In this document: piece after piece, positions 1-27,175 of the stretch | How the letters are laid out: the number at the start of each line of letters is the position of its first letter | Numbering within the stretch: the stretch's first letter is position 1 | Source of the DNA: a virus | Lineage: Duplodnaviria > Caudoviricetes | Length of the DNA stretch: 64,000 nt | Strand: one strand, 5' to 3' | Virus record (IMG/VR): IMGVR_UViG_3300017700_000931 | Location: 32,001 to 96,000 of that record | Made by a program: the position numbers and the translations under genes | Notes under the pieces: generated by a model | The model's database searches: none | Seen by the model: only the letters and a program-made list of their open reading frames with translations | Told to the model about the DNA's origin: nothing

Positions 1-42
1 ATTCTTAACGCTGGTTTCTGTTTTTGTACTTGTGTTTCTCAT
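1..42 (-). CDS. hypothetical protein, N-terminus only (runs off window)
   Basis: ATG at 42 (MRNTSTKTETSVKN) downstream of TAATTTTG box at 72-79. Confidence 0.5.
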   Translation of the reverse strand, partial: MRNTSTKTETSVKN

Positions 43-129
43 GTTACTTTAGTTTTATTTAGATTATACCGCAAAATTATCAAGTAATTTCCAATACCAC
101 AAGGGTTTTAACTAAAATAATTAATTTTG

Positions 130-218
130 TAGGGGTGGTGGGACTCGAACCCACAGGTGTATCTTACGTTTGCCGTGAATTTTAAGCCCACCGCCTTTGC
201 CAATTTGACCACACCCCC
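130..218 (-). tRNA. tRNA-Leu(UAA)
   Basis: Cloverleaf; anticodon arm GTGGG-CTTAAAA-TTCAC; long variable arm; TTCGAGT T-loop; no encoded CCA. Confidence 0.9.
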
Positions 219-227
219 ATTTAATAG

Positions 228-298
228 TAGCCCCAGATGGAATCGAACCATCGCTTTCTCCACGTCAAGGAGATATACTCCCATTATATTATGGGGCC
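228..298 (-). tRNA. tRNA-Val(GAC)
   Basis: TCTCC-TTGACGT-GGAGA anticodon arm; TTCGATT T-loop. Confidence 0.9.
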
Positions 299-303
299 AT
301 TTG

Positions 304-389
304 TAGCGGGAGGTGGATTCGAACCACCGCAAGCCTTCTTAGGGTCTCTAGGTTATGAGCCTAGCGAGTTACCACTTCTCCATCCCGCA
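304..389 (-). tRNA. tRNA-Met(CAU), initiator-like, with long variable region
   Basis: CTAGG-CTCATAA-CCTAG; U1:U72 mismatch; 17-nt variable region. Confidence 0.8.
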
Positions 390-394
390 ATTTG

Positions 395-478
395 TACCGA
401 AGGTGGGATTCGAACCCACACGCCCTTTCGGACACTGGTTTCTAAAACCAGCACGTCTAACCGTTCCATCACTTCGGC
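395..478 (-). tRNA. tRNA-Leu(UAG)
   Basis: CTGGT-TTTAGAA-ACCAG; long variable arm. Confidence 0.9.
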
Positions 479-484
479 ATATTG

Positions 485-572
485 TACCCCTACTCAGACT
501 CGAACTGAGAACGTTTCTTATGTTTTCCACGGCTTCTTAGACCGTAAGCTTTACCAGTTTGCTCATAAGGGC
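485..572 (-). tRNA. tRNA-Leu(AAG)
   Basis: ACGGT-CTAAGAA-GCCGT; long variable arm; A34. Confidence 0.85.
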
Positions 573-628
573 ATGTTCGGGCTACTATTCATTCGTCAAT
601 ACCGCCCGACCGTATTGATTCCAAATTG

Positions 629-714
629 TTGCAAAGGTAGGACTCGAACCTACAATTGGGTTTGCGACCCTCTCCCTCTCCGGGAGATGCGTATACCGAT
701 TCCGCCACATTGCA
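629..714 (-). tRNA. tRNA-Leu(GAG), non-canonical G33
   Basis: TCTCC-CGGAGAG-GGAGA; long variable arm GGGT-CGCAA-ACCC. Confidence 0.8.
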
Positions 715-741
715 AGGATACTTGTACTTCGTATCCCTTTG

Positions 742-827
742 TAGCCGAGGCGGGACTCGAACCCGCACGGGCATTTCTGCCCACCGGATTTTAAGTCCGG
801 CGTGTCTACCAATTCCACCACTCGGCC
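742..827 (-). tRNA. tRNA-Leu(UAA)
   Basis: CCGGA-CTTAAAA-TCCGG; canonical Leu D-arm. Confidence 0.95.
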
Positions 828-835
828 ATCAGTTG

Positions 836-916
836 TAGGGGCGGTGGGATTCGAACCCACATGCTCTAGGCGGTAGCTTTTGAAACTACTGCGTCTGCCA
901 ATTCCGCCACGCCCCC
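836..916 (-). tRNA. tRNA-Leu(CAA)
   Basis: GTAGT-TTCAAAA-GCTAC; long variable arm. Confidence 0.9.
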
Positions 917-923
917 ATTTATG

Positions 924-995
924 TACCCTCGACTGGAATCGAACCAGTGCTTTCTGCATGTAAAACAAACGTGACTACCATTACACCACGAAGGC
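924..995 (-). tRNA. tRNA-Val(UAC)
   Basis: TTTGT-TTTACAT-GCAGA; TTCGATT T-loop. Confidence 0.85.
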
Positions 996-997
996 AA

Positions 998-1204
998 TTA
1001 TATTCTATCAAAGTATTTAATCCAAACATCTAAATCCTCAAGTTCTATTTTAGTCAATTTACCAACACTACCTCTAATCGTATGTGATATTTTCAAATCA
1101 CCATTTTCAATCGTAATGAATGTAAATCCCCTAGTCCACCCTTTTGCATCAGTGACGAAGTTTCTCATTTTAAACATCAACTCCAATTCATTAGTGCGTT
1201 CCAT
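998..1204 (-). CDS. hypothetical protein inside tRNA cluster
   Basis: ATG at 1204 (MERTNELE...), fills gap between two tRNA-Val genes. Confidence 0.55.
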   Translation of the reverse strand: MERTNELELMFKMRNFVTDAKGWTRGFTFITIENGDLKISHTIRGSVGKLTKIELEDLDVWIKYFDRI

Positions 1205-1223
1205 AACCGGATTAATTACTATG

Positions 1224-1295
1224 TTGGAGCAGAGGGATTCGAACCCCCGACCTAGTGCATGTAACACACCAACTCTACCGCTGAGCTATACTCCA
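1224..1295 (-). tRNA. tRNA-Val(UAC)
   Basis: GGTGT-GTTACAT-GCACT; canonical D and T arms. Confidence 0.85.
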
Positions 1296-1330
1296 ATTTG
1301 ATAGGAATTACAACCTATCGTATTATTTTG

Positions 1331-1416
1331 AGCATGTGATAGGATTCGAACCTATGATGAGGGTTGCCCCATACGGTTTTGCAGACCGTTGCCTTCGACC
1401 ACTCGACCACACATGC
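1331..1416 (-). tRNA. tRNA-Cys(GCA) with long variable arm
   Basis: ACGGT-CTGCAAA-ACCGT; U73; variable hairpin GGG-GCAA-CCC. Confidence 0.85.
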
Positions 1417-1430
1417 ATTTTATTTTGGTC

Positions 1431-1464
1431 AAAAAAAAAGCTCGAACTTTTTGAGTTCGAGCTT
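1431..1464 (-). terminator. intrinsic terminator of attenuator 1
   Basis: AAGCTCGAAC-TCAAAAA-GTTCGAGCTT followed by a U-run. Confidence 0.85.
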
Positions 1465-1488
1465 GAATATCTTTGGTATTAATCTTTA

Positions 1489-1581
1489 TTAACTTCCAAT
1501 CACATAGACATAGCTCGAACACTCTAACACCAATAGGCATAAGACTGAGTTAAGGAGCACTATGTTTACAAAATTGTTCAT
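1489..1581 (-). CDS. leader peptide 1 (MNNFVNIVLLNSVLCLLVLECSSYVYVIGS), Leu/Val/Cys-rich
   Basis: 30 codons between promoter and terminator; contains GTTCGAGCT (1512-1520), complementary to the terminator 5' strand. Confidence 0.8.
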   Translation of the reverse strand: MNNFVNIVLLNSVLCLLVLECSSYVYVIGS

Positions 1582-1596
1582 TGAAGATTTCTACGT

Positions 1597-1653
1597 TTTA
1601 TTATTAAATATATCACAAAGATACTAATGTTATTTGAATTAGCAATGATTTTT
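1597..1653 (-). promoter_or_regulatory. tRNA-cluster promoter, copy 1 of a 57-bp identical repeat
   Basis: Identical to 26496-26552; contains TATCTTTG (Bacteroidota -7 box) at 1616-1623 and an upstream TTG. Confidence 0.85.
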
Positions 1654-1704
1654 ATAAATTATTTTTAAAATATTTTTTAATCGATTGATTTTGTGATATT
1701 TAAC

Positions 1705-1929
1705 TCATGATAAATTAACTGATAATTCTCCATTATTAAACCAACTTTCGGTATAAGTGATACTATAGTCGGTTAATGTTTTACCTACAATTCTTTTCAT
1801 TTCATCACTATTACCTGTGATAATGATTACCGATTTGGAGCCACCCATCAGGTGGTATCCAATGAATTTATCTACCTCTCTGGATACATCCGCATGTTTT
1901 ATACCATGTAAATCTAAACTATTTTTCAT
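1705..1929 (-). CDS. stand-alone Smr-domain protein
   Basis: LDLHG ... IITGNS motifs. Confidence 0.75.
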   Translation of the reverse strand: MKNSLDLHGIKHADVSREVDKFIGYHLMGGSKSVIIITGNSDEMKRIVGKTLTDYSITYTESWFNNGELSVNLS

Positions 1930-2386
1930 TATTAATTTTTTTCAATATGTTAAGTACATTTATTACTGTTGCTTCATTATTGGTTTTGGAACCTAGCCAT
2001 AATAAATATCTTTTCATCTCATCTAATTCTAATAATGTAAGTTTACTAAGCCACTTACCTTTAAATTTACCAGTTATAAATGTGTAATCATCAGATACTT
2101 TCCTAATGACACCACATCTAGGATTTTTATTTGTATTTCTTATTGAGACCGGATGGATTAATTTACTACCTTCCAATTTTTTACACTCAATAACATACCT
2201 GTTACCCTTTCTTAGGGTTATTGTATCAAAAATTTTAGCACGGTTGGAGTGATATTCACCTGACATGTCTTCTCCGGCATCATTTCTCACACCGGACCAC
2301 ATCATTTGTAAATCACCAACAAAGTTATCTGATTTTTTTGGTTCTAAGTCTTTTAAACCATTAAATGTTGCATACAATCTAATCAT
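1919..2386 (-). CDS. hypothetical protein
   Basis: 155-aa ORF overlapping neighbours in an operon. Confidence 0.65.
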   Translation of the reverse strand: MIRLYATFNGLKDLEPKKSDNFVGDLQMMWSGVRNDAGEDMSGEYHSNRAKIFDTITLRKGNRYVIECKKLEGSKLIHPVSIRNTNKNPRCGVIRKVSDDYTFITGKFKGKWLSKLTLLELDEMKRYLLWLGSKTNNEATVINVLNILKKINNEK

Positions 2387-2906
2387 TTATTGGTCCCTCA
2401 TATTTTTCATCAGAATATTTAGATGATGTCACACAATCATAATCCATATCCCATGATGTTATTACAAAATTAAGTGATAAACACACAACACCATCGATAA
2501 TTTCTCTCCTTGCATGAAAATGACCTCGTCTATAATCAGAATGGCCATAATCATTTTCTTCCCACGTAGAAATTTCATTTAATAAATCACTAGCCGTTTC
2601 TTTTAAACGTTCTATAGATGTGATATCAATAATTCTGTTATGGTATCTATTAGAAAATGCCTCATAGTATTTTTTTATTAAATCAAAATCCATGTCTTCT
2701 AAAATCCAATGAATTTGTTCTTTAGTTGACATTTGTGGTAAAGTCAATAATGGCCTGTTTTTTAATTCAGTTGTTATCCGGCTTATTAATTCCTTATCTA
2801 GATTGGGTTTAGTAAGTTCTGAATGTAACTTAGTTTGTAAACCTTTATATGTGTACGTTGGGAATTCCATTGAGGCAAAATTACGTAATTTTTTATTAGT
2901 CTGCAA
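2379..2906 (-). CDS. hypothetical protein (start uncertain)
   Basis: ORF track; operon context. Confidence 0.55.
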   Translation of the reverse strand: MQTNKKLRNFASMEFPTYTYKGLQTKLHSELTKPNLDKELISRITTELKNRPLLTLPQMSTKEQIHWILEDMDFDLIKKYYEAFSNRYHNRIIDITSIERLKETASDLLNEISTWEENDYGHSDYRRGHFHARREIIDGVVCLSLNFVITSWDMDYDCVTSSKYSDEKYEGPIND

Positions 2907-2907
2907 T

Positions 2908-2937
2908 AAAAAAAGCCATACTTTTGGTATGGCTTTT
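2908..2937 (-). terminator. intrinsic terminator
   Basis: AAAAGCCATAC-loop-GTATGGCTTTT inverted repeat with U-run. Confidence 0.7.
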
Positions 2938-2959
2938 ACTTGTAAAAAATTTTTGAAAA

Positions 2960-3586
2960 TTATCTTTTACCATCTGCTTGTACTGTGATGCTTTGACCAC
3001 CTCTAGCTTGAGCTTCTTGAACTCTTGCTTCTCTATCAGCAGTGATTTGAGATTTGTAATCGTTAATTTGATTAACGTAAGAATCAATTTTATCTTTAGC
3101 TGTTGACAATTCTGCCTTCATTGTTGCAGAAGCAGCAGCAAATTCCAATTCTTTTGCTCTGATTTCTCCATTATGTCTTGCTGTGATAATAGCGATAGCT
3201 TTTTCAGTTTCAGCTTTAACATTTTTATCAAATGATGTTTTAGTAGATTCCAATTCACTCTTTAGTGAAGCTAGTTCACTAGCATCAATTGATACTTTAC
3301 CTTCTGATTTTAAGATTTCGTTTACCAATGAAGAAGCAGATTCTTTTGCTCTCAATTTAAGGTCTGCTTGCATTTCTCTTTCCTTTTCAGTGAAATTAAC
3401 ACTCAATTTCTCAAGTTCCGCTTGTTTTAATTCAATGTTTGTCACTAAATCTTCATATGATTCATTAGTTGCTTGTAAATCTGAAACGATTTTTGCTAAT
3501 GCTTCTGTTGCTTTGTTAATTTTTTGTGTACTAGCTTGTGCGATGCTGGTTACTTTGTTTATTTCATTACTTCCTTTTGTTGCCAT
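2960..3586 (-). CDS. coiled-coil hypothetical protein
   Basis: 208-aa heptad-rich ORF; TATCTTTG box at 3629-3636. Confidence 0.7.
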   Translation of the reverse strand: MATKGSNEINKVTSIAQASTQKINKATEALAKIVSDLQATNESYEDLVTNIELKQAELEKLSVNFTEKEREMQADLKLRAKESASSLVNEILKSEGKVSIDASELASLKSELESTKTSFDKNVKAETEKAIAIITARHNGEIRAKELEFAAASATMKAELSTAKDKIDSYVNQINDYKSQITADREARVQEAQARGGQSITVQADGKR

Positions 3587-3810
3587 TTTAATTTTTTTAA
3601 GGCTTTGTTATGGTTTTTATTTCTAGTACAAAGATACGAAGAAACCTAGATATAGGCAAGGGTTTTTCGAACTTTTTTTTATTTTTTTTAAAGTATTTCA
3701 GTACTGATTATCAGTACTTTATGTATTTTTAATGAAAATATTTTTAATATATTAAAATAGGTCGACATTAGTCCTAAATGTTATAGTGGTGATTGAGATA
3801 TTTATAACAT

Positions 3811-4551
3811 ATGAAGCTAGTGAAATTATATGAAAGTGTTATAAAAGAAGGTCAAGTTGAGTCTTGTATTTCACAATTTGGTATGGAATTATTTTCGCCG
3901 GAATTCGGTGGTGATGAACCTAACACCGAATTAGAAAATGATTATATTGAATTAATTCATAAATTCTCTGGCAAACCACAAGGTACTAGAATCGATACTA
4001 ATATGTATAATATGGCCAACAAATTAAAAACGTGTGTTTCATATTATCCTGATATTCTTCAATCGAGAGGTTACGCTTTTAGAGGTATTAAGATTTCTAT
4101 TGCTGACTTCTTAAAATCATTCCCAGAAATAAAAGAAAGAATTAGAATGGGGCAACCATTTCAAATGGTTTATAATGCTAAAACACCGATACAAAGTTGG
4201 GGTGATGATGAGGATTCAGCTAATGATGATTTTGGGTATCGTGGGACTAGTATTGCTTCAGTATTAGATAAATTTGATGCTGCTAGAAAATCTGGAACAC
4301 TAAATGAATTCATTCAACATATAATTCACCATAATTTGGATACTGAGATTCCAATCATGATTAAATACAGAATCCAAGCTGATGATTTTATTTTCAAAGG
4401 TAAGTATTTTAATTACCTATCCAATAATGATAATAACGAAATTCTAAGAATTGATAATCGCCCAATAGAAGTATTGGCTAAGGTTAGTCCGATGGAATTT
4501 TCAACAAAATTATTTGATTTATTACAAATACTTTCTAGTTCAAAGTATTAA
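3811..4551 (+). CDS. hypothetical protein, possibly virion-associated; weak ADP-ribosyltransferase-like motifs
   Basis: ATATTTATA at 3798; N-terminal LYE/IKE; AFRG..QSW..NEI spacing. Confidence 0.55.
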   Translation: MKLVKLYESVIKEGQVESCISQFGMELFSPEFGGDEPNTELENDYIELIHKFSGKPQGTRIDTNMYNMANKLKTCVSYYPDILQSRGYAFRGIKISIADFLKSFPEIKERIRMGQPFQMVYNAKTPIQSWGDDEDSANDDFGYRGTSIASVLDKFDAARKSGTLNEFIQHIIHHNLDTEIPIMIKYRIQADDFIFKGKYFNYLSNNDNNEILRIDNRPIEVLAKVSPMEFSTKLFDLLQILSSSKY

Positions 4552-6186: not shown

Positions 6187-7755
6187 TTATTTTCTGTTAG
6201 TTTCCATATAACGGAATACATCCGCAACTTTTTGCATTACTGCTCGGTGTTCTTCATTACCACCTTTAGTAGAGAACAATTCTTTACCCAAAATTTGTAA
6301 TGCATCACTAACACTATCGTGTTGTTTGATTGCTCTACATTCAGCAAATTTAATTTGTTTTTTATACGAATCCGCAGCTGAAACAATATCTTCATTACTG
6401 ATTTGATTCCCTTGTCTGTGAATCATGTATGCTTTTGCTTTATCGATTACCTCAGAAGCGAAAGCCGGAACAATACCACACAATGAGTTAATTGCAGCAG
6501 TATGGTCACCTTCAACCATTAATGACTTACCTTCTTTATCAACAACCAATTTATCGATAAATTGTTTTGCTGTTTCTTCATCCAAAACACCAAAGTTAAT
6601 TAATGAACCAATACGTTTACCTCTTAAGAATGTTGGCTCAATTACTTCAATGTGATTTGTCGTAAAGATTGAGATGATTGGGAGATTTTTAGTGTCTCCG
6701 CCATCAAGAGTATTTACAATTTCTTGAATTTTTTCACCACGCTCTCCTCGAAGAACTTGGTCAATATCTTCAGTAAACAAAATAACTCCATTACCATTTC
6801 TGGCATAGTTTTCAGCAATTTTCAAAGCCTTAGCTGAATGTTTACATTCTTTAACATAAATGAAGGTCCAACCAAACTCTCTGGCAATTTTACCAAGCCA
6901 AAAAGCGGTTAAGGTTTTACCAGTACCATAGATACCTTCCATTAGTACTCCCAATTTTATATCAAGACCTTCTTTGCGGCATTTTTCAGTTTCCTTGATT
7001 CTGGCTAGAATCGGAATAAGACCATCAAGGATGTCTTTTGAAAATAAAATTTTATTTTCATCGATAGTTGATAAATCCATGAAACTTGGTTCATTAGCAT
7101 AGTCATCGTCATCAAACTCAAGTTCAATTGCTTGAGCTAAATACAATGCTTCTTTCGCTAATATCTCGTTAGTCATATCAATGACTTTTCTGATGTCTGG
7201 TTCGAATTTTTTTCTGATTCGAGCATGAACTGTTATAGTAGTATCCTCATAATCATAATCAAGGTCGATATAACACTCATCATCAAAACCCGGAAGTTGA
7301 ATTCGTCCCCACGGAACTTTTACTTCTTCTCCATTTGGTAATGAAACACTGATTAATTCAGGAATTTTATCACCAGACATACCACCAGTACTAGTTTGGT
7401 TAAAAACACCCAAAACCTTTTCAACTGCTTTTGAAATAGCATATGCTCCTTCATGTTGAAAACATTTTAATTCATAATGAATTTCAACTAGTTGTTTTGT
7501 TGCATGAATTTTATCATTCATGAACTTTAAAGCATATTCAAAACCTTTTTCTTGGGCTAGACCAACCATTTCGGTTAACTCTGCTTCATTCATTTCCGTT
7601 TGAGTTGGTTTGAACATGTCTGTATTGACAGTAGATTCCTCTGTTTCATTTTCTACAGATGTTTCAGAACCCAATTTTTTAATCGGATTTGATTTTTCAG
7701 AAATGCTAGTTTCACCAGCGTTTTTTTCTTTTGTAAGTTCGTTCGTGTTAGCCAT
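6187..7755 (-). CDS. AAA+ ATPase
   Basis: Walker A GIYGTGKT, Walker B-like LFTEDID, TTN sensor, RGKR finger. Confidence 0.85.
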   Translation of the reverse strand: MANTNELTKEKNAGETSISEKSNPIKKLGSETSVENETEESTVNTDMFKPTQTEMNEAELTEMVGLAQEKGFEYALKFMNDKIHATKQLVEIHYELKCFQHEGAYAISKAVEKVLGVFNQTSTGGMSGDKIPELISVSLPNGEEVKVPWGRIQLPGFDDECYIDLDYDYEDTTITVHARIRKKFEPDIRKVIDMTNEILAKEALYLAQAIELEFDDDDYANEPSFMDLSTIDENKILFSKDILDGLIPILARIKETEKCRKEGLDIKLGVLMEGIYGTGKTLTAFWLGKIAREFGWTFIYVKECKHSAKALKIAENYARNGNGVILFTEDIDQVLRGERGEKIQEIVNTLDGGDTKNLPIISIFTTNHIEVIEPTFLRGKRIGSLINFGVLDEETAKQFIDKLVVDKEGKSLMVEGDHTAAINSLCGIVPAFASEVIDKAKAYMIHRQGNQISNEDIVSAADSYKKQIKFAECRAIKQHDSVSDALQILGKELFSTKGGNEEHRAVMQKVADVFRYMETNRK

Positions 7756-8014
7756 TTTTTAGTTCTTGAGCTTGTTTGTATAAAAATTCCATTTGTTTTT
7801 TCGTGTCAGTTAAACAATCAATTCTAACTTTTTTATCAGGACACGTTCTGATATTAGAATCACCAAATTTATATCTAGTTATTGTTTTTTTCTTTAAAAA
7901 ATTATCAATCTGAGTAAGTGTTCCGGTTAAGCCTTTACAAGTGATAAGGATTTCACCATCTACTTTAGTAAAAGTGATTGGGTAACCACCAAAAGTTAAT
8001 TCTTGATTATCCAT
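7748..8014 (-). CDS. hypothetical protein
   Basis: ORF with TACATTTG box at 8019-8026. Confidence 0.6.
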   Translation of the reverse strand: MDNQELTFGGYPITFTKVDGEILITCKGLTGTLTQIDNFLKKKTITRYKFGDSNIRTCPDKKVRIDCLTDTKKQMEFLYKQAQELKNG

Positions 8015-23695: not shown

Positions 23696-23772
23696 TACAG
23701 ATGATAGGATTCGAACCTACATTGCGCTCCGTTACAGCTTCTAGTTTCGAAGACTAGGCTGGCTACATCTGT
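23696..23772 (-). tRNA. D-armless tRNA-Arg(UCG)-like
   Basis: Acceptor ACAGATG/CATCTGT, CTAGT-CTTCGAA-ACTAG, canonical T arm, no D arm. Confidence 0.65.
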
Positions 23773-26065: not shown

Positions 26066-26137
26066 GGTGTAAGGACGGTACCGACCCGTCTTCTCTAGGT
26101 TCACAGCCTAGCACTTCACCTTAAAGCTTCAAACACC
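26066..26137 (-). tRNA. tRNA-His(GUG), atypical T-loop
   Basis: CTAGG-CTGTGAA-CCTAG; G-1:C73; T-loop GTCGGTA. Confidence 0.7.
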
Positions 26138-26327: not shown

Positions 26328-26356
26328 AAAAAAAGCTCGACCTTGTGAGTCGAGCT
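26328..26356 (-). terminator. intrinsic terminator of attenuator 2
   Basis: AGCTCGAC-TCACAAG-GTCGAGCT followed by U-run. Confidence 0.85.
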
Positions 26357-26384
26357 AAATCCTTATTACCTATATCTTGTTACA

Positions 26385-26477
26385 TTATGATACTTTGGTT
26401 ATGGACATACCCGACTCGGTTGAAGAATTACGTCTCCAATTACTAATCGAAATCATATGTATGTGCATTGTCATCAT
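26385..26477 (-). CDS. leader peptide 2 (MMTMHIHMISISNWRRNSSTESGMSITKVS)
   Basis: 30 codons; 18 of first 19 are Met/His/Ile/Ser/Asn/Trp/Arg; GAGTCGGGT (26409-26417) pairs with terminator 5' strand. Confidence 0.85.
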   Translation of the reverse strand: MMTMHIHMISISNWRRNSSTESGMSITKVS

Positions 26478-26495
26478 TTTGTAAAAATTGTTTTG

Positions 26496-26552
26496 TTTAT
26501 TATTAAATATATCACAAAGATACTAATGTTATTTGAATTAGCAATGATTTTT
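26496..26552 (-). promoter_or_regulatory. tRNA-cluster promoter, copy 2 of a 57-bp identical repeat
   Basis: Identical to 1597-1653; TATCTTTG at 26515-26522. Confidence 0.85.
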
Positions 26553-26557
26553 GTGAA

Positions 26558-27175
26558 TTATTTTTTCTTTTTTTTAGTTTTCCTTGATTTTACTGGTGTT
26601 TTGACAGATGCGGCGATAGAATCTTTTTTTGTCATTTCAACATAATTGAATGGTTTTTCCACTCCTCCGCTAAAATGTGCTGCCGCAGATAATGCAATTT
26701 CTAACTTTTCGTATGGCTTCATTTTAACATTTTGAAGAGCATACATGGCACCATCTGCTATTTCTTCACCACACCCAACTGATATAAAATTATCTTTAGT
26801 CATTGCTACTTGATAATCTTCATCAATCATATAAAGTTCACCTTTATATCCGACTAAGAAGGTCCCACCTTTATCATCACCATCTTTAAATCTTTGACTA
26901 TACCCACCTTTTCTAAAACACTCCTTGACTGAGTCAATAAATGTTGTTATCATGAAATCAAAATCAGATTGACCTTTCTTTTGTTTTGGTGCTTTATAAT
27001 GTGAAGACATTAATAATTGTCCCATCCTAAAACTTGATGTAAAACCCATTATAAATGGTCCTGTTTTGAAAACCTTAGTATCTCGTCTAATATGGATAGA
27101 TAATCCGCCAACACCAGCACTATCACCACCAATTATAACTTTATCCTGTTGAATTAATCCTACTATACATGTCAT
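26558..27175 (-). CDS. HslV/proteasome-like Ntn peptidase
   Basis: MTCIVG..GGDS N-terminal Thr nucleophile; K in TKVF; SVGCG. Confidence 0.75.
   Translation of the reverse strand: MTCIVGLIQQDKVIIGGDSAGVGGLSIHIRRDTKVFKTGPFIMGFTSSFRMGQLLMSSHYKAPKQKKGQSDFDFMITTFIDSVKECFRKGGYSQRFKDGDDKGGTFLVGYKGELYMIDEDYQVAMTKDNFISVGCGEEIADGAMYALQNVKMKPYEKLEIALSAAAHFSGGVEKPFNYVEMTKKDSIAASVKTPVKSRKTKKKKK

Follow-up and report, generated by a model that had tools for sequence, protein, structure and literature searches.

A likely leader-peptide transcription attenuator upstream of a phage tRNA operon, one of four paralogous cassettes in a large phage genome

Unit S1 (1653–1431, minus strand) is likely a ribosome-mediated, or leader-peptide, attenuator that controls transcription of a phage tRNA operon, and it is one of four paralogous units in the same genome. 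The probability of this reading is put at about 0.77; it rests on comparative sequence evidence, with no expression data. The evidence that carries it – the anatomy of the sequence, the enrichment statistics, the conservation among paralogs and orthologs, and the co-variation between the terminator and a leader segment referred to as region 2 – is shown below. Coordinates refer to the window, the whole stretch of DNA that was analysed (64,000 nucleotides, bases 32001–96000 of a viral record of 362,532 bp that has direct terminal repeats), unless they are given as genome positions.

The S1 locus and its promoter

The genome has a GC content of 33% and 57 tRNA genes, which are clustered and nearly all on the minus strand. 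A gene for a CCA-adding enzyme adjoins unit S2, and a tmRNA is also found near the tRNA arrays. The tmRNA is phage-encoded (41052–41434, minus strand; Rfam RF00023, 89.7 bits). A previous reading of the window, made from the sequence alone, had proposed a promoter, a 30-codon ORF (1581–1489), a terminator (1464–1431) and tRNA genes, in that order. This layout held: all the parts claimed for S1 were found at these positions on the minus strand.

1616–1645 (minus): promoter, with TTG (−33) at 1645–1643, a 19-nt spacer and the −7 box TATCTTTG at 1623–1616
1489–1581 (minus): leader ORF of 30 codons with a TAA stop at 1491–1489, encoding MNNFVNIVLLNSVLCLLVLECSSYVYVIGS
1525–1569 (minus): sensor stretch, codons 5–19, in which 11 of 15 codons are Val, Leu or Cys
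1555–1566 (minus): region 1, AACATAGTGCTC, codons 6–9, candidate partner of region 2 and the TATG that follows it
1512–1520 (minus): region 2, the putative antiterminator strand GTTCGAGCT, codons 21–24, a perfect 9-nt complement of the terminator 5' arm
1455–1464 (minus): region 3, the terminator 5' arm AAGCTCGAAC, from sequence and folding
1431–1447 (minus): region 4, with the 3' arm GTTCGAGCTT at 1447–1438 overlapping a run of nine T at 1439–1431
129–1416 (minus): tRNA cluster, Cys(gca), Val(tac), Val(tac), Leu(caa), Leu(taa), Leu(gag), Leu(aag), Leu(tag), Met(cat), Val(gac), Leu(taa)

TTG/TAnnTTTG is the sigma-A promoter consensus of the Bacteroidota. The S1 promoter lies inside a 64-nt block (1660–1597) that is repeated upstream of other tRNA clusters, with copies at 26559–26496 (97% identical) and at genome positions 16247, 31794, 70787 and 14478. 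In related phages the TTG and TAnnTTTG boxes are kept and the spacers differ. An exact scan of viral contigs for the promoter core found no match. Comparison of positions 1–4000 with cultured phages by blastn gave only tRNA-level matches, and a tblastn search with the 692-aa neighbouring protein found no close cultured relative.

One promoter copy (38787–38190, minus strand) is 94% identical to the S3 copy; behind it is a 30-codon ORF (MITANRKTKT...) with no match to the tRNA downstream, and there is no terminator. About 500 nt without an Rfam match then precede a lone tRNA-Met(cat), and may perhaps be an unrecognised structured RNA. The sixth copy (genome 14478–13940, minus strand, outside the window) is followed by a 100-aa ORF and then by Gly(tcc) and Lys(ttt) tRNAs, without leader or terminator, and divides the cluster downstream of S3.

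Sensor codons of the S1 leader

The S1 leader begins with an ATG about 28 nt downstream of the predicted transcription start site. Twelve of codons 5–21 encode Val, Leu or Cys, as had been claimed, and all the Val, Leu and Cys codons of the sensor stretch are readable by the tRNAs encoded downstream. The best 12-codon window of the leader has 10 codons for amino acids of its own tRNA set, a count reached by none of 200,000 windows from the phage proteome.

The six Leu codons of the leader (CTC, CTT, TTA, CTA, TTG and TTA) are the exact Watson-Crick complements of the anticodons of the six tRNA-Leu genes (gag, aag, taa, tag, caa and taa). CTG is absent from the leader, and tRNA-Leu(cag) is absent among the 57 tRNAs of the genome. 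This mirror, too, had been claimed previously and held in this phage. Given how the phage itself uses codons, exactly this multiset of Leu codons has a probability of 0.005, in a post hoc test, and at least five distinct Leu codons in six draws a probability of 0.027. The sensor uses 9 distinct codons where 6.4 are expected (P = 0.022) and is biased to rare codons (P = 0.0016): GTT, the commonest Val codon, is missing from the leader, and CTC, which makes up 1.8% of Leu codons, is present. In the four leaders of the genome taken together, the sensor codons are more diverse (40 distinct vs 32.1 expected from phage usage, P = 0.0008) and rarer (P = 0.0002) than phage usage predicts. Diverse and rare codons fit a leader that probes many isoacceptors and is sensitive to their supply, although this is inferred from sequence alone.

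As a generality, the codon-for-anticodon match failed. The exact mirror holds in two of the five phages with an S1-type (Leu/Val/Cys) cassette and fails in three. In the related phage G001, the three Leu codon types used in the leader correspond to the three anticodons present. The leaders of G004, G007 and G008 have four to five Leu codon types and only one tRNA-Leu gene downstream, so a one-to-one mirror is not a rule, and a strict match was rejected as a general property of these leaders. The robust feature is a match at the level of amino acids, together with diverse and rare synonymous codons.

In the S1 cluster the two tRNA-Val(tac) genes are separated by a small ORF (about 1207–998), similar to the small protein gene of the S2 operon described below.

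Four paralogous cassettes in one genome

The first 64 nt of the S1 region recur in the phage's own genome, and a search of that genome with the region identified four cassettes, S1 to S4. Each has a Bacteroidota-type promoter, a leader of 29–31 codons, an intrinsic terminator and a tRNA cluster. Each unit covers 3–7 amino acids, and between them the four cover all 20.

26328–26544 (minus): S2, with TTG at 26544–26542, TATCTTTG at 26522–26515 and the leader at 26477–26385
26416–26409 and 26356–26334 (minus): S2 proposed switch, region 2 and the terminator, respectively, the latter followed by a T run
Genome, about 16250–15995: S3, preceding Pro, Gln, Tyr, Thr, Gly and Lys tRNAs; leader contains TYQPKQYTQGGKP
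Genome, about 31794–31553: S4, preceding Phe, Glu, Gln, Asp and Ala tRNAs; leader contains FDFAFEAAEAD

The tRNAs downstream of S2 are Trp, Ser, His, Asn, Arg, Ile and Met (26009–22932), and 17 of its 19 sensor codons belong to its own set. When leaders were scored against clusters in an amino-acid matrix, the diagonal, in which each leader is paired with its own cluster, accounted for 64 codons; among the other 23 assignments the best reached 45, and the mean was 31. The best 12-codon windows of S1 to S4 contain 10, 12, 12 and 11 own-set codons, with an empirical p ≤ 8e-5 for each (200,000 random proteome windows). In all four units the most stable upstream partner of the terminator 5' arm falls at leader codons 21–26. 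The energies of these pairings are −14.3, −9.7, −14.7 and −9.5 kcal/mol, and 0, 9, 1 and 80 of 500 shuffles, respectively, were as good.

The paralogs bear directly on a rival explanation, that the S1 ORF, with a terminator of its own, codes for a small hydrophobic peptide of the membrane and that its richness in Leu, Val and Cys simply reflects a transmembrane helix. In favour of this, the S1 peptide taken alone resembles a transmembrane segment, and the orthologs of the S1 leader share a conserved LxLCL motif. Against it, the S2 to S4 leaders are polar or charged and match their own tRNAs, and they share with S1 the promoter, the N-terminal box, region 2 and the layout of the terminator. The region after the sensor, moreover, is not conserved as a peptide and instead tracks the terminator. 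The membrane-peptide reading is considered very unlikely and was rejected on the evidence of the paralogs.

Cassettes in related phages

At least eight contigs of related phages have the same design, and four more S1-type cassettes are among these. In total there are 20 distinct cassettes, four in this genome and about 16 in relatives, which retain the ORF, a sensor stretch suited to the tRNAs behind it, and a segment at codons 20–26 that varies together with the terminator 5' arm of its own cassette. The sequence-only reading would have been refuted if related phages did not conserve the ORF and the antiterminator. That outcome was not met: both are conserved in the relatives' cassettes, with the exception of one S4 lineage that has no detectable antiterminator.

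Some of the relatives were found independently of the leader, through the CCA-adding enzyme encoded beside S2, which identified three contigs at 49–66% identity. Two of the three have cassettes: one contig (L004) has an S2-type cassette, and another (L005) has two, including a Leu/Val-rich one before two tRNA-Leu genes. In the record of the first of these, G001, cassettes of the S1, S4 and S3 types also lie within a span of 6 kb. The S1 ortholog there encodes MITRNNILLVLNLCLLVVNWSDCVVS, and the tRNAs that follow it are Cys, Val, Leu, Met, Val, Leu and Leu. Nine more contigs were found when the sensor stretches of S3 and S4, which are nearly invariant, were used as probes of viral contigs, and because these nine were ascertained by the leader they are silent on prevalence. 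S1-type cassettes are found in G004 and G007 (before Cys, Val and Leu tRNAs) and in the complete, 339-kb G008 (before Cys and Leu tRNAs). These three were found without the use of S1 sequence, only by scanning next to tRNAs. A DNA search of the relatives' records with S1 and its tRNAs gave only short T-arm matches, and no relatives were found for the 205-aa protein encoded upstream of S2.

Where the tRNA content of a cluster has changed, the leader can change with it. The G002 cluster has been re-assorted (Pro, Gln, His, Arg, Ser, Phe, Glu, Asp), and its leader likewise contains F, D, H, E, Q, S and P. The tracking is not without flaws. Only Tyr and Pro tRNAs follow the S3-type leader of G008, although it retains codons for Gln, Lys, Thr and Gly. 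The S4 cluster of G004 includes a tRNA-His with no His codon in the leader, and the His, Arg and Asn tRNAs of G008 have no cassette. At the place in G008 where an S2-type cassette was to be expected, upstream of tRNA-His (contig L028, 7445–7591, minus strand), the 3' end of a protein gene (...GIEGIAVYPSQVVTLG) is found and no leader. By look alone, this end may resemble the C-terminus of a transposon-type nuclease.

The sensor stretches of this phage and G001 are identical at the nucleotide level over about 38 nt in S3, about 27 nt in S2 and 29 nt in S4 (for example in L003 and L007). The CCA-adding enzymes of the two phages share only 66% of their residues, and the identity of the sensor nucleotides despite this divergence indicates selection on synonymous sites in the leaders.

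A second rival explanation is that the 5' leader is structured and untranslated, for example an element for the processing or stability of the tRNA precursor, and that the ORF is incidental. A random 28-codon frame would be open 22% of the time in a 33% GC genome, and the S1 region does fold better than its shuffles (z = −3.9). Against this reading, an ATG-initiated ORF of 24–36 codons is kept in all 20 distinct cassettes despite insertions and deletions, each unit of this genome matches its tRNAs in amino acids at the probability given above, and the synonymous choices are non-random. This reading, too, is held to be very unlikely, and the incidental ORF was rejected on the paralog evidence.

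Co-variation of leader and terminator

No two of the five S1-type phages have the same terminator, and in each the leader has a segment at codons 20–27 that matches its own. In S1 the pair is GUUCGAGCU/AGCUCGAAC in this phage vs GGUCGGACU/AGUCCGAUU in G001, and two of the nine antiterminator pairs are fully compensatory between the two (A-U to G-C and G-C to A-U). In the S4 orthologs the terminators are unrelated (GCUCGACCA vs GGCUCUCC), and again each has a leader segment to match.

A MAFFT alignment of six S1-type cassettes placed region 2 and the 3' arms in register and left the 5' arms out of register, so a duplex test of own against swapped arms was relied on instead. With the region 2 window of each of the 20 distinct cassettes paired to its own arm, the summed duplex energy was −225.6 kcal/mol. 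With permuted arms the mean was −151.8 kcal/mol (sd 10.4), and none of 20,000 permutations matched the own-arm sum. Within the S1-type cassettes alone, 2 of 720 permutations were as good as the own arms. The test is conservative because near-identical orthologs share arms. The exception is the S4 lineage of G004, G006 and G007, in which no antiterminator complementarity was detectable (−4.8 kcal/mol). Terminators and antiterminators thus co-evolve across both paralogs and orthologs.

Terminator, antiterminator and folding

The S1 terminator is a stem of 11 bp (1464–1438, about −15 kcal/mol) followed by nine T, and ends 14 nt before the tRNA-Cys gene. The earlier claim that codons 21–24 are a perfect 9-bp complement of the 5' strand of the terminator held. 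The 9-mer of region 2 occurs three times in the 64 kb, all within S1: at 1520–1512, at 1447–1439 and, as its complement, at 1463–1455. The chance expectation is 0.06, and none of 100 shuffles reached three. The duplex of regions 2 and 3 has an energy of −14.3 kcal/mol, and none of 500 shuffles was as good.

Folds were computed with ribosome footprints masked and the 3' arm not yet made. All nine bases of region 3 then pair with region 2, and with the ribosomal A site at codons 18–27 none or few do. A stall at codons 5–17 would therefore leave the antiterminator free, and a ribosome over region 2 would abolish it. These folds support the earlier proposal that a stalled ribosome frees the antiterminator, and the comparative evidence supports its wider claim, that the mechanism is attenuation of the his/trp/leu type acting on tRNA genes.

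The companion proposal, that full translation allows termination, was upheld only in part. In S1 the gap between region 2 and the stop codon is 20 nt, and a terminating ribosome covers none of the nine nucleotides, so masking of region 2 at the stop codon cannot be the means in this unit. Across the cassettes this gap ranges from 6 to 38 nt; the spacing between stop codon and terminator arm is conserved, mostly at 22–30 nt. Masking of the trp type would be complete in G004 and G007 (8 of 8 nt covered), partial in G001 and absent in S1.

At equilibrium, regions 2 and 3 of S1 pair even without any ribosome, which means that termination must depend on kinetics; in S2 the unconstrained minimum free energy fold likewise already contains this pairing. 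Region 1 is a possible anti-antiterminator or pause stem. In the candidate stem an ACAUA box at codons 5–9 pairs with UAUGU just past region 2, and the same site is found in most cassettes. The stem could conceivably supply the kinetic control, but it is weak: in S1 its energy is no better than that of shuffles (38 of 200 as good), and most cassettes are within the range of their shuffles.

These weaknesses support a third rival explanation, in which the leader is translated and the terminator is real but works as a constitutive partial stop, holding tRNA transcription at a fixed, low level or shielding the tRNA genes from upstream genes, with the composition of the ORF and the 9-mer having another role or none. 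Equilibrium folds alone predict no switch, the stop-codon geometry of S1 is not classical, and the stem of regions 1 and 2 is weak. This explanation is nonetheless judged unlikely. It leaves unexplained the four leaders, each of which spells its own tRNA set, and the co-variation of region 2 with its own arm over 20 cassettes.

Proposed mechanism

In the attenuation model, host RNA polymerase would start at the TTG/TAnnTTTG promoter and a ribosome would translate the 30-codon leader. With charged tRNA for Leu, Val or Cys in short supply, the ribosome would stall within codons 5–17, leaving region 2 free to pair with the emerging 5' arm of the terminator; no terminator would form, and the polymerase would enter the Cys/Val/Leu/Met tRNA genes. 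If decoding were fast, the ribosome would pass over region 2, or region 1 would recapture region 2 behind it, and with region 2 covered or recaptured the terminator would form and transcription would stop at the T run. As the 20-nt gap rules out masking by a ribosome at the stop codon, S1 would have to rely on passage of the ribosome over region 2 or on kinetic trapping by the upstream stem. The net effect would be a multivalent negative feedback on tRNA supply. Translation of the leader, termination, the sign of the response and its physiological trigger are all inferred, with no RNA or ribosome data, and coupling of transcription and translation in the presumed Bacteroidota host is assumed.

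If this model is correct, the phage probably reserves each tRNA set for times when ribosomes are slow on the matching codons, a likely consequence for which there are no expression data. A feedback loop would be closed from the speed of codon decoding to the transcription of tRNA genes, which would explain how large phages regulate big tRNA arrays, and the question of why phages carry tRNAs would become directly testable with reporters. The cassettes could also be used as small, natural sensors that report how available specific charged tRNAs are.

A bolder reading, considered possible but clearly less likely than not, is that the four cassettes form a decoding-surveillance system in which the leaders are codon checklists, and that it acts as an inducible counter-measure and not merely as a homeostat. 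Possible triggers are host defences that cleave tRNAs, phage-induced decay of host tRNAs, and mismatch in codon usage. Were this so, the phage would switch on just the subset of tRNAs whose decoding had slowed.

Comparison with known systems

Leader-peptide attenuation is a textbook mechanism for operons of amino-acid biosynthesis. S1 has four of its defining features – a short ORF, clustered regulatory codons, an intrinsic terminator, and an antiterminator of regions 2 and 3 that excludes the terminator and lies downstream of the regulatory codons – with translation of the leader inferred. An upstream stem overlapping the regulatory codons is no more than a weak candidate, readthrough that depends on leader translation and charged tRNA is a prediction, and the trp-type masking of region 2 at the stop codon is absent in this unit. 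The mechanism is likely of a known kind applied to tRNA genes, a target without precedent in the literature searched. No description of leader-peptide control of tRNA genes was found in the full-text literature searched, nor any of translational sensing upstream of phage tRNA arrays. An attenuator of a tRNA-Phe gene of E. coli was considered as a precedent and rejected after a check at pheV of strain K-12, where only about 100 nt are found, with a promoter and neither an ORF nor a terminator.

The closest parallels are ilvL (of ilvGMEDA), ivbL (of ilvBN) and leuL, the multivalent leader-peptide attenuators of branched-chain amino-acid operons in enterobacteria. Like S1, they have a short leader ORF with clustered Leu and Val codons that include rare ones, an intrinsic terminator, a strand within the leader that complements the terminator 5' arm, and OR-type sensing of several amino acids. 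They control biosynthetic enzymes, whereas S1 stands before tRNA genes, is phage-borne and has a Bacteroidota-type promoter. There is no similarity to S1 in sequence or by covariance model, and the S1 stop codon, unlike theirs, is too far from region 2 for masking.

The pheST operon of E. coli has an attenuator with the leader peptide pheM. As in the proposal for S1, a gene of the translation apparatus is attenuated, and the decoding rate of a codon class feeds back on the supply of aminoacyl-tRNA. The target of the pheST attenuator is a synthetase and a single amino acid is sensed, whereas S1 to S4 would act on the tRNAs themselves, with 3–7 amino acids per unit. T-boxes, which are typical of Firmicutes, bind uncharged tRNA directly and need neither a ribosome nor an ORF. 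They resemble the proposal for S1 in that antitermination reports tRNA charging through competition between a terminator and an antiterminator. The reading by S1 would require the ORF and a ribosome, and S1 has no T-box match.

When S1 was searched against the Rfam leader families, Thr_leader scored 23 bits (cut-off 55) and Trp_leader 15.4 (cut-off 41), and Leu_leader, His_leader and T-box were below threshold. In the window as a whole, only tRNAs and the tmRNA reached the Rfam gathering score. In other respects this phage resembles other large phages with tRNA arrays, with clustered, co-oriented tRNA genes, a CCA-adding enzyme gene and a tmRNA nearby.

Other features of the tRNA operons

A small protein gene (about 55–60 aa, MEE..VRKLG...) is conserved between the S2-type terminator and the first tRNA, so that the operons proposed to be attenuated are not purely tRNA.

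26303–26150 (minus): small protein gene in this phage
L004, 13538–13702: small protein gene in G001
L028, about 7650–7845 (minus): small protein gene in G008

Two tRNA-like sequences in the S2 cluster (26066–26136 and 23696–23772, both minus strand) score 37 and 39.9 bits, respectively, in Rfam and were not called by ARAGORN. Outside the window (genome 25456–25530, minus strand), ARAGORN called a tRNA with a two-base anticodon ('ga'), which may have an unusual anticodon loop or may be a miscall. It is also found where the S4-type cluster ends in L010 and L033. Its position is conserved in a related phage, and a third phage has a tRNA-Ser(aga) there.
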